In this document: in pieces, positions 2,086-3,714 of the stretch
Layout: each line of letters begins with the position of its first letter
Position numbering within the stretch: the stretch's first letter is position 1
Source of the DNA: Ignavibacteriota bacterium
GTDB lineage: Bacteria > Bacteroidota > Ignavibacteria > UBA10030
Assembly: GCA_963701295.1 (NCBI GenBank)
Contig: OY969585.1
Coordinates: 1,504,001 to 1,568,000, forward strand
DNA length: 64,000 nucleotides
Reading direction: 5' to 3'
Notes under the pieces: model-generated
The model's database searches: none
Seen by the model: only the letters and a program-made list of their open reading frames with translations
Told to the model about the DNA's origin: nothing
Made by a program: the position numbers and the translations under genes

Positions 2086-2114
2086 TTGACTTTTTTCAAA
2101 AAAAAATGTACTCT
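2086..2114 (+). promoter_or_regulatory. Putative sigma70 promoter for the trp leader/trpB2
   Basis: TTGACT (2086-2091), 17-nt spacer, TACTCT (2109-2114); predicted start near 2121. Confidence 0.6.
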
Positions 2115-2123
2115 GGTACCAGA

Positions 2124-2204
2124 ATGAATAACGAGCTATACTATTCTCATCTGCAACAGGCTTGGCGGTGGCGATGGATGAAGTCCGCGCTTCCGCTGAG
2201 GTAG
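2124..2204 (+). CDS. Trp-rich attenuator leader peptide MNNELYYSHLQQAWRWRWMKSALPLR (26 aa)
   Basis: ATG 2124 to TAG 2204; three TGG codons (2163, 2169, 2175) directly upstream of a tryptophan synthase beta gene; overlaps the antiterminator strand. Confidence 0.85.
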   Translation: MNNELYYSHLQQAWRWRWMKSALPLR

Positions 2205-2267
2205 CTCATTTACACTGATTACCCAAACAAAGGTGGAAACGCGGACTGGAGCGTTCCTGCCTTTTTT
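2182..2267 (+). promoter_or_regulatory. Transcription attenuator with mutually exclusive antiterminator and terminator
   Basis: 2182-2197 (AGTCCGCGCTTCCGCT) pairs 15/16 with 2232-2247 (GGTGGAAACGCGGACT). Alternatively 2229-2242 pairs with 2251-2264 as a terminator hairpin followed by a U-tract. Confidence 0.85.
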
Positions 2268-2359
2268 CGTTTCATGCTGAATCGGATAATCGTGGAAACC
2301 TCCGTTCACAAGCGTGATTCACCAAAATAATATTAACAAATAACCATACGGAGGTCATT

Positions 2360-3673
2360 ATGCCGCGTAAATTCATGCTCGAAGAGCAGGAAATCCCAAC
2401 ACACTATTATAATATTGCAGCCGATTTGCCTACACCGCTGGATCCGCCGCTTCATCCCGGAACTAAGCAGCCGATTGGTCCGCAGGATTTAGCACCCATT
2501 TTCCCGATGGAATTAATTAAGCAGGAAGTGAGTGCCGAGCGCTTCATTGAAATTCCGGATGCAGTTCGAAATGCGTACGCCACTTTTCGTCCATCCCCGC
2601 TCATCCGAGCTCTTGATCTCGAACGAGCACTTGGAACACCCGCTCAGATCTATTATAAATATGAAGGGGTCAGTCCAGCTGGAAGCCATAAACTCAATAC
2701 AGCACTCGCTCAGGCATACTACAATAAGCAGGCGGGCATCAGACGTATTGCTACAGAAACAGGCGCCGGACAATGGGGAAGTGCATTGTCGCTGGCATGT
2801 AAAATGTTTGGTTTACAGTGCAAAGTGTATATGGTGAAGGTAAGCTATGAACAAAAACCGTATCGCCGCTCGATGATTCATACCTGGGGAGCGGAAGTGG
2901 TTGCAAGTCCGAGTACGGATACAAAATCCGGCAGGGACGCTCTTGCAAAAAATCCAAATTCTACAGGCAGCCTTGGTCTTGCAATTAGTGAAGCAGTGGA
3001 AGATGCAGCTGGACGTGAAGATACCAATTACTCCCTCGGCAGTGTATTAAACCATGTCCTATTGCATCAAACAATTATTGGATTAGAAGCAAAGAAGCAG
3101 ATGGAAAAGGCAGGTGTCTATCCGGATATCATTATCGGTTGTGTCGGCGGCGGTTCGAATTTCGGCGGCATTGTACTGCCATTCATCAAAGATAAACTTG
3201 CAGGGAAAAAATTCCGGGCAATAGCAGTCGAACCAGCCTCTTGCGCGTCGCTTACAAAAGGTGAGTATCGGTACGATTTAGGCGATGTTGCCGGTATGGC
3301 GCCCATGGTTAAAATGTATACCCTTGGTCATGATTTTATTCCGCCTTCAATTCATGCAGGAGGACTGAGATATCATGGAATGTCTCCAATCATCAGTAAA
3401 TTGTATCATGAAAAATTGATTGAAGCTCAGGCTTATGATCAAATGGAAGTCTTCGAAGCGGGTGTGTTGTTTGCCCAAACGGAGGGGATTATTCCGGCAC
3501 CGGAATCATCACATGCCATTAAATCTGCCATTGAAGAAGCGAAAAAAGCAAAGTTGGAAGGAACCAAGAAGGTCATTCTGTTCAACTTGAGCGGTCATGG
3601 CCATTTTGATATGAGTGCCTATGATGCGTACTTTGCCGGTAAACTCGGTCAAGGAAACGGTAACGGGAAATAA
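2360..3673 (+). CDS. trpB2: TrpB2, stand-alone tryptophan synthase beta-type PLP enzyme
   Basis: [16 protein letters not shown] (PLP Lys), [56 protein letters not shown]; no trpA nearby. Confidence 0.95.
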
Positions 3674-3683
3674 GAGAATCTTT

Positions 3684-3714
3684 ATGGGGGCGAGGCCATC
3701 TCGCCCCTGTTTTT
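3684..3714 (+). terminator. Rho-independent terminator after trpB2
   Basis: GGGGCGAG-gccat-CTCGCCCC followed by TGTTTTT. Confidence 0.8.

Follow-up and report, generated by a model that had tools for sequence, protein, structure and literature searches.

In E. coli, the trpL leader combines a short ORF carrying Trp codons, the hairpins 1:2, 2:3 and 3:4 and a U-tailed terminator, and the position of the ribosome decides the outcome (PMC4615214, in extract). These elements are shared by a leader found upstream of a trpB2 gene in a 64,000-nt stretch of DNA from an Ignavibacteriota bacterium (hereafter the window), which differs from trpL by its lone trpB2 target, a predicted near-leaderless ORF, a fifth segment and a predicted second lock. 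In the same phylum, the Bacteroid-trp motif RF01692 also places a leader peptide with Trp codons before Trp synthesis genes, as stated in the excerpted part of Weinberg 2010 (PMC2864571); unlike the trpB2 leader family, RF01692 leaders lack segment 5. Its 49-bit cut-off was reached neither in the window's genome, which gave no match, nor in 14 relatives, and its 11 matches in a 121-genome sample of the phylum lie before trpE (10) or trpB1 (1), none before trpB2. Rfam Trp_leader and T-box gave no match in 1900-4000 of the window (E up to 10), no other Rfam family matched, and the trpB2 leader family has no Rfam model.

The same logic, with trpB2 turned on by uncharged tRNA-Trp, is found in Dehalococcoides, where a Trp T-box precedes a trpB-like gene (Wels 2008, PMC2494555, in extract), with the difference that a T-box binds the tRNA directly and has no leader peptide. 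We found T-boxes directly before trpB2 in 15 of 20 selected loci of the Chloroflexota and Tepidanaerobacter types, counted irrespective of specifier codon (L069, L070, L071, L076, L077, L086, L089 and L094, and further L099, L103, L107, L110, L113, L119 and L128). W-rich matches before trpB2 in Dehalococcoidia fell inside T-boxes and were rejected as leaders. Mycobacterial leaderless polycysteine sORF attenuators (bioRxiv 10.1101/834739, in extract) share with the window a leaderless sensor ORF and control of a downstream Shine-Dalgarno (SD) sequence; in those attenuators the SD is bound by the sORF itself and no termination is involved, whereas in the window termination forms the first lock and a relay would lead on to the SD. 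In Corynebacterium diphtheriae, a classical attenuator was predicted before 'trpB2A' (Seliverstov 2005, PMC1262725); as far as that extract goes, this 'trpB2' shares an operon with trpA, whereas the window's trpB2 stands alone. Our literature search, which was incomplete so that an earlier description is possible, found no report of a TrpB2-family gene controlled by a leader-peptide attenuator, nor of any such attenuator in Ignavibacteria. We take the C. diphtheriae name 'trpB2' to denote a second TrpB1-type copy. The his operon leader of Salmonella and E. coli is a six-segment relay whose extra segments precede a single terminator; both it and the window's leader have more than four mutually exclusive segments, the extra one of the window lying 3' of the terminator. 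Reportedly, trpB is also listed among attenuated genes by Lopatovskaya (2010). The attenuator core of the window is textbook, and its new part is the predicted relay behind the terminator.

Methylmalonyl-CoA mutase and epimerase genes open the window, and a 295-nt gap then separates them from trpB2. The features of the locus are:

2086-2114, + strand: predicted sigma-70-type promoter (-35 TTGACT 2086-2091, 17-nt spacer, -10 TACTCT 2109-2114)
2124-2204, + strand: leader peptide ORF of 26 aa (ATG 2124, TAG 2202-2204), with no SD ahead
2163-2177, + strand: control codons W-R-W-R-W, segment 1 (TGG at 2163, 2169 and 2175)
2182-2197, + strand: segment 2, antiterminator 5' arm (pairing, covariation)
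2229-2247, + strand: segment 3, antiterminator 3' arm or terminator 5' arm (pairing, covariation)
2248-2267, + strand: terminator loop, segment 4 (3' arm) and U run 2262-2267 (folding, covariation)
2292-2305, + strand: segment 5, copy of the segment 3 core, pairing with segment 4 through 2292-2303 (folding, covariation)
2348-2355, + strand: trpB2 ribosome-binding site (GGAGG at 2350-2354)
2360-3673, + strand: trpB2, stand-alone TrpB2-family PLP enzyme of 437 aa (TIGR01415 score)
3684-3714, + strand: intrinsic terminator ending the monocistronic trpB2 unit (3684-3710, -18.8 kcal/mol)

An earlier note on this DNA had described the 26-aa WRWRW ORF, the 15/16-bp antiterminator 2182-2197:2232-2247 competing with a terminator at 2229-2267, and trpB2 alone with its own terminator; the first is confirmed by the ORF and its three TGG codons, the second by pairing and folding, and the third by the TIGR01415 score and the terminator at 3684-3710. 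That note lacks segment 5, and it does not mention that the mini-gene would start almost leaderless. The promoter lies below the threshold of the promoter scan, and its prediction rests on conservation: in 30 of 36 leaders a TTGAC box is present and puts the start of the leader 6-11 nt past the -10 position, so that the mini-gene is predicted to be nearly leaderless, the ATG of the window's leader lying 9 nt 3' of the predicted -10. Directly past the trpB2 terminator, the window encodes (3912-6665, + strand) a 917-aa YVTN beta-propeller repeat protein with a T9SS C-terminal sorting domain.

Folding of the window's RNA is consistent with a switch. Between segment 2 (2182-2197) and 2247-2232, pairs form at 15 of 16 positions, including two G-U pairs; the terminator 2229-2267 has -15.6 kcal/mol and six U at 2262-2267, and the 2:3 domain has -27.7. 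The whole 235-nt leader folds with z = -2.3 (5/200 shuffles as good). In the ribosome-free RNA, a 1:2 hairpin (2162-2199) covers the Trp codons and the terminator forms as well. With a ribosome mask stalled on W14 or W16, the probability of the antiterminator is 0.89-0.97, and from W18+12 nt onwards that of the terminator is about 0.9, so that the third Trp codon is probably too late for antitermination. By computation, stalling in the window thus frees the antiterminator and run-off blocks it, as in a classical attenuator, and the Trp codons are clustered.

Could such an arrangement occur by chance? Among 8240 intergenic ATG-started ORFs of 10-40 aa in the window's genome, three have at least 3 W in 5 codons, and two of these three are followed by a terminator and a gene, one lying before trpB2 and the other before trpE. 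We searched 61 genomes and fetched 29 orthologous trpB2 loci besides the window, two of them incomplete. Within the order, 28 orthologous loci were readable, and 26 of them have a W-rich leader before trpB2 (26/27 of the readable ones among those fetched; L046, one locus more, is without one). Such a leader also occurs in 14 of 33 further loci of the class, and 21 readable orthologous loci of the order and the further class set have none. In 11 class loci, W-rich matches before trpB2 proved to be the C-terminus of the upstream gene and were discarded, and no W leader was found at three trpB2 paralogues of about 50% identity. In families f17 and f27, trpB2 genes without an attenuator leader lie closely 3' of a conserved upstream gene (L143, L149, L154, L157, L158 and L160; further L163, L165, L166, L169 and L170). 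The run of control codons is mostly WWWRW in relatives as against WRWRW in the window. In G016, G019 and G030 (L035, L036, L037), the same leader heads a trpB2-trpEGDCFB1A operon; an ORF between trpF and trpB1 of L036 is presumably DAHP-synthase-like. A 959-aa open frame had suggested a TrpB2-TrpE fusion in G016, and this was dropped, as two ORFs are called there.

Alignment A1 of 36 leaders was compared with 500 shuffles and with slid helices as controls. Pairing is kept at 79% in helix 2:3, with 48 double changes, and at 86% in helix 3:4, with 21, values that 0/500 shuffles reach in either case, although the sequences are kin, 13 of the 36 leaders coming from nearly one genus, so that the shuffle counts overstate the support; slid-control helices are at most 54% paired. 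The antiterminator and the U-tailed terminator are mutually exclusive elements with compensatory changes, and Trp-codon sORFs with covarying helices upstream of trpB2 in relatives, proposed earlier as a check, are indeed present. Judged at equilibrium, no more than 16 of 36 leaders favor the antiterminator over the terminator, and the others need folding order; in 36/36, helix 2:3 has already folded when segment 4 is transcribed, and the terminator forms after run-off in 36/36. The E. coli switch has likewise been described, in the extract of PMC4615214, as one where 2:3 folds ahead of segment 4.

These data bear on two other explanations. The hairpin could be a constitutive terminator of the upstream mutase-epimerase operon with a W-rich ORF in it by chance, a reading that draws on a negative search for terminators from the epimerase stop (2064) to 2086. 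It is largely refuted by conservation, since the leader and the promoter boxes persist next to different upstream genes, and with only 2/8240 short ORFs in the genome-wide test and a covarying antiterminator we consider it very improbable. The peptide itself might instead be the active element, through nascent-peptide arrest, drug- or metabolite-dependent stalling (tnaC- or peTrpL-like) or action in trans, instead of a shortage of tRNA-Trp. Within the genus, QQAW and a SALPLR-like C-terminal end of the peptide are indeed kept, and the predicted near-leaderless transcript would also suit this idea. However, the C-terminal codons are segment 2, so that RNA pairing explains their conservation; the N-terminal half diverges freely, the peptide may end directly after the W run (L023, L153), and before DAHP synthase Y/F runs replace the W run in the same chassis, as codon sensing predicts. 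An active peptide is thus an unlikely explanation.

We therefore favor, with high confidence, a ribosome-mediated Trp attenuator that would switch the stand-alone trpB2 on when charged tRNA-Trp is scarce; the geometry proposed in the earlier note is supported by folding, by the genome-wide chance test and by covariation. RNA synthesis would start from the promoter at 2086-2114, two or three bases before the leader AUG. With ample Trp, following the E. coli paradigm, the ribosome would cover segment 2, and 3:4 with its U run would end transcription near 2267. A stall on W14 or W16 is computed to leave segment 2 free, so that 2:3 would form before segment 4 exists and the polymerase would read through. 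We infer that trpB2 is induced on Trp starvation. RNA-library contigs of related strains span leader and gene, these being assembled contigs that show neither transcript ends nor levels, and 5-10% of sequence words are present in three metatranscriptomes.

About 25 nt 3' of the U run, the segment 3 core recurs (2292-2299) with CUCC behind it, and this is segment 5. Freed 2248-2260, that is, the terminator loop and 3' arm, is predicted to pair with it. On the 36 leaders, helix 4:5 is 81% paired with 17 double changes, which 0/500 shuffles reach. We also used an alignment-free test, in which segment 4 must pair downstream better than 95% of shuffles: this holds in 25 of the 36 aligned leaders and in 8 of 12 held-out leaders, a set not fully independent because it was found with model R1, which contains segment 5. 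Four of the 36 leaders, where no terminator was called, and L026 and L233, where the wrong hairpin was called, count as misses. None of 22 control trpE/RF01692 leaders passes (L183, where the pattern did not match, was left out). In the window alone, one pair is lost and the 4:5 duplex is not significant (38/300 shuffles). Taken across the leader family, sequence comparison gives good support for the pairing of freed segment 4 with segment 5, which we regard as probable.

What this pairing would control appears to differ between lineages. A second U-tailed hairpin with segment 5 as an arm occurs in 11 of 36 leaders (-8 to -19 kcal/mol); free segment 4 abolishes it in 8 of the 11 and it persists in 3. 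The 13 genus-type leaders are without it. In the window, all 8 nt of 2298-2305 are complementary to the trpB2 ribosome-binding site, and the predicted probability of this anti-SD:SD pairing is 0.01-0.42 with a stalled ribosome versus 0.83-0.92 otherwise. SD sites are in use in the window's genome (peak -9 to -12), whose 16S tail retains the anti-SD. In the relay so suggested, by computation and with support from comparison, freed segment 4 would capture segment 5; where 3:4 has formed and a polymerase has leaked through, segment 5 would be free and would shut the gene a second time. In 11 relatives it would do so as part of a second terminator; in the window's genus, with less certainty, it would pair with the trpB2 ribosome-binding site.

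For the genus, several results argue for caution. The anti-SD:SD helix keeps 90.6% pairing with 2 double changes, and 54/500 shuffles reach its covariation score, which is not significant; the anti-SD of the window shows no preference in pairing for its own site over the other GGAGG sites in its genome (fraction 0.23), and 0/13 genus-type leaders are specific for their own site at 0.05. In the full-length fold of the window, the SD opening energy only rises from 4.1-5.0 to 5.8-6.7 kcal/mol, a net change of about 1-2. Given this lack of significant covariation and of specificity and the small energy, a translational lock on the trpB2 ribosome-binding site by segment 5 is, for the window's genus, a tentative model to which we give somewhat less than an even chance. 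Another reading has a nearly even chance: the attenuator would be a plain four-segment one, and segment 5 in the genus a decayed relic of a duplicated terminator, its CCUCC being kept for pairing with the terminator-loop GGAG or for stability of the antiterminated fold, with no translational control. Segment 5 does repeat the segment 3 core in the same register, the window has lost one 4:5 pair, the helix with the SD shows no covariation, and the same CCUCC is a loop in the second-terminator relatives, where the SD does not switch. On the other hand, segment 5 keeps 80-90% pairing while the spacer diverges, and locking segment 4 makes the SD harder to open in 13/13 genus-type leaders (+0.7 to +7.1 kcal/mol), whereas the change is at most +0.6 kcal/mol in 10 of 11 second-terminator leaders; moreover, in L159 the pairing with its own site uses a different register (fraction 0.018).

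The leader family extends beyond trpB2. Model R1 matches 30 of 121 genomes of the order. Six new matches lie before DAHP synthase and have Tyr/Phe-rich leaders (L227, L228, L232, L233, L234 and L235, at about 1400-1700 each). Some of these leaders end like the window's peptide, and most retain segment 5 with compensatory changes; ORFs that we take to be chorismate-mutase-like and prephenate-dehydrogenase-like follow DAHP synthase at part of these loci. One further new match, in G052, precedes trpE and is without segment 5. A possible unifying view, held tentatively, is that of an Ignavibacteria-type relay segment behind the terminator whose output may have been rewired, to a second terminator in some lineages and to occlusion of the ribosome-binding site in the window's genus, the chassis being re-tuned from Trp to Tyr/Phe by the control codons alone.

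Outside the phylum, WWW leaders with terminators precede trpB2 in L080, L116 and L123 (labeled Syntrophaceae, Syntrophales and delta proteobacterium), with weak R1 scores. In family f21, six genomes (L146, L148, L150, L151, L174 and L178) have WWPR-type leaders in the 200 nt before trpB2 with a small hairpin, and L179 is similar. No U-tailed terminator was found in the family f21 leaders, which are possibly under translational or Rho-dependent control, and trpA and trpC were not found in these genomes.

The gene at 2360-3673 belongs to TrpB2 (TIGR01415 / PRK12391): its product reaches 664 bits against a cut-off of 518.85 on TIGR01415, and 168 bits against a cut-off of 392 on the trpB model TIGR00263, and its closest solved chains are 6HUL, 4QYS and 6HTE. 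By gene location it is a TrpB2_o, with trpB2 outside the trp operon and trpB1 inside. In the extract of Merkl 2007 (PMC1854888), TrpB2_o commonly denotes a trpB2 standing alone in a genome whose trp operon carries trpB1, and Geobacter is an exception to this arrangement (PMC2700814, in extract). The excerpted part of PMC11535334 cites a KM below 1 uM for Thermotoga TrpB2 and reports experimental support for indole salvage by Bacteroides TrpB2. In line with this literature, TrpB2 of the window would make Trp from free indole. A TrpB2 is characterized by high-affinity use of indole with serine (or phosphoserine) and by its independence of TrpA.

The earlier note also considered that the organism might be a Trp auxotroph. 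A look for trpEGDCFA in the genome (99.3% complete, one contig) overturned this idea, since trpE, G, D, C, F, B1 and A are all present in one operon (C1:996709-990183). The names of the operon genes besides trpE, trpA and trpB1 rest partly on gene order and characteristic sequence features; those of trpC and trpD are supported by further searches as well. The operon has its own Trp attenuator, a 31-aa WWWR leader and a terminator before trpEGDCFB1A (L001, C1:996793-996888, - strand) without segment 5, and this leader is kept in the nine same-genus operon loci read and in G059. As the organism also makes Trp de novo, salvage would be co-induced with the separately attenuated trp operon. That a conserved Trp attenuator sits on trpB2 in a prototroph is, in our judgment, very likely.

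Auxotrophy likely holds for relatives lacking trpA and trpC, as judged from their sequences. Both genes were not found in 15 of 53 trpB2 genomes (96-100% complete), and a W leader precedes trpB2 in 14 of these 15 versus 27 of the 38 others, in a sample that was hand-picked and not random. The PF00591 matches of the 15 genomes resemble in size and score the second, non-trpD match of the window's genome, and we infer that they are nucleoside phosphorylases. Tryptophanase was considered as an internal source of indole, and no clear TnaA was found in the window's genome: its best tryptophanase candidate (L136:1393-2778, - strand) passes the tyrosine phenol-lyase cut-off and a broader tryptophanase subfamily model and stays under both TnaA equivalog cut-offs. 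In G018 and G030 (L047:27-2536, L048:2797-5999), a divergent second trpB2 (about 50%) without a Trp leader adjoins a tryptophanase-family gene, which would put indole production and recapture side by side.

If the second lock is real, a single stalled ribosome would release two locks in series, one on transcription and one on translation, and could go on gating mRNA that is already finished. The one-lock, two-terminator, terminator-plus-SD and terminator-less forms offer a natural series for changes in attenuator tightness and input amino acid. Trp supply as the role of TrpB2, put forward in the earlier note, fits the Trp leaders or T-boxes that precede trpB2 in several phyla. As regulation reports the purpose of an enzyme, Trp sensing at trpB2, present within one class in prototrophs and in likely auxotrophs alike, speaks for Trp supply from free indole rather than for the other roles proposed for TrpB2.
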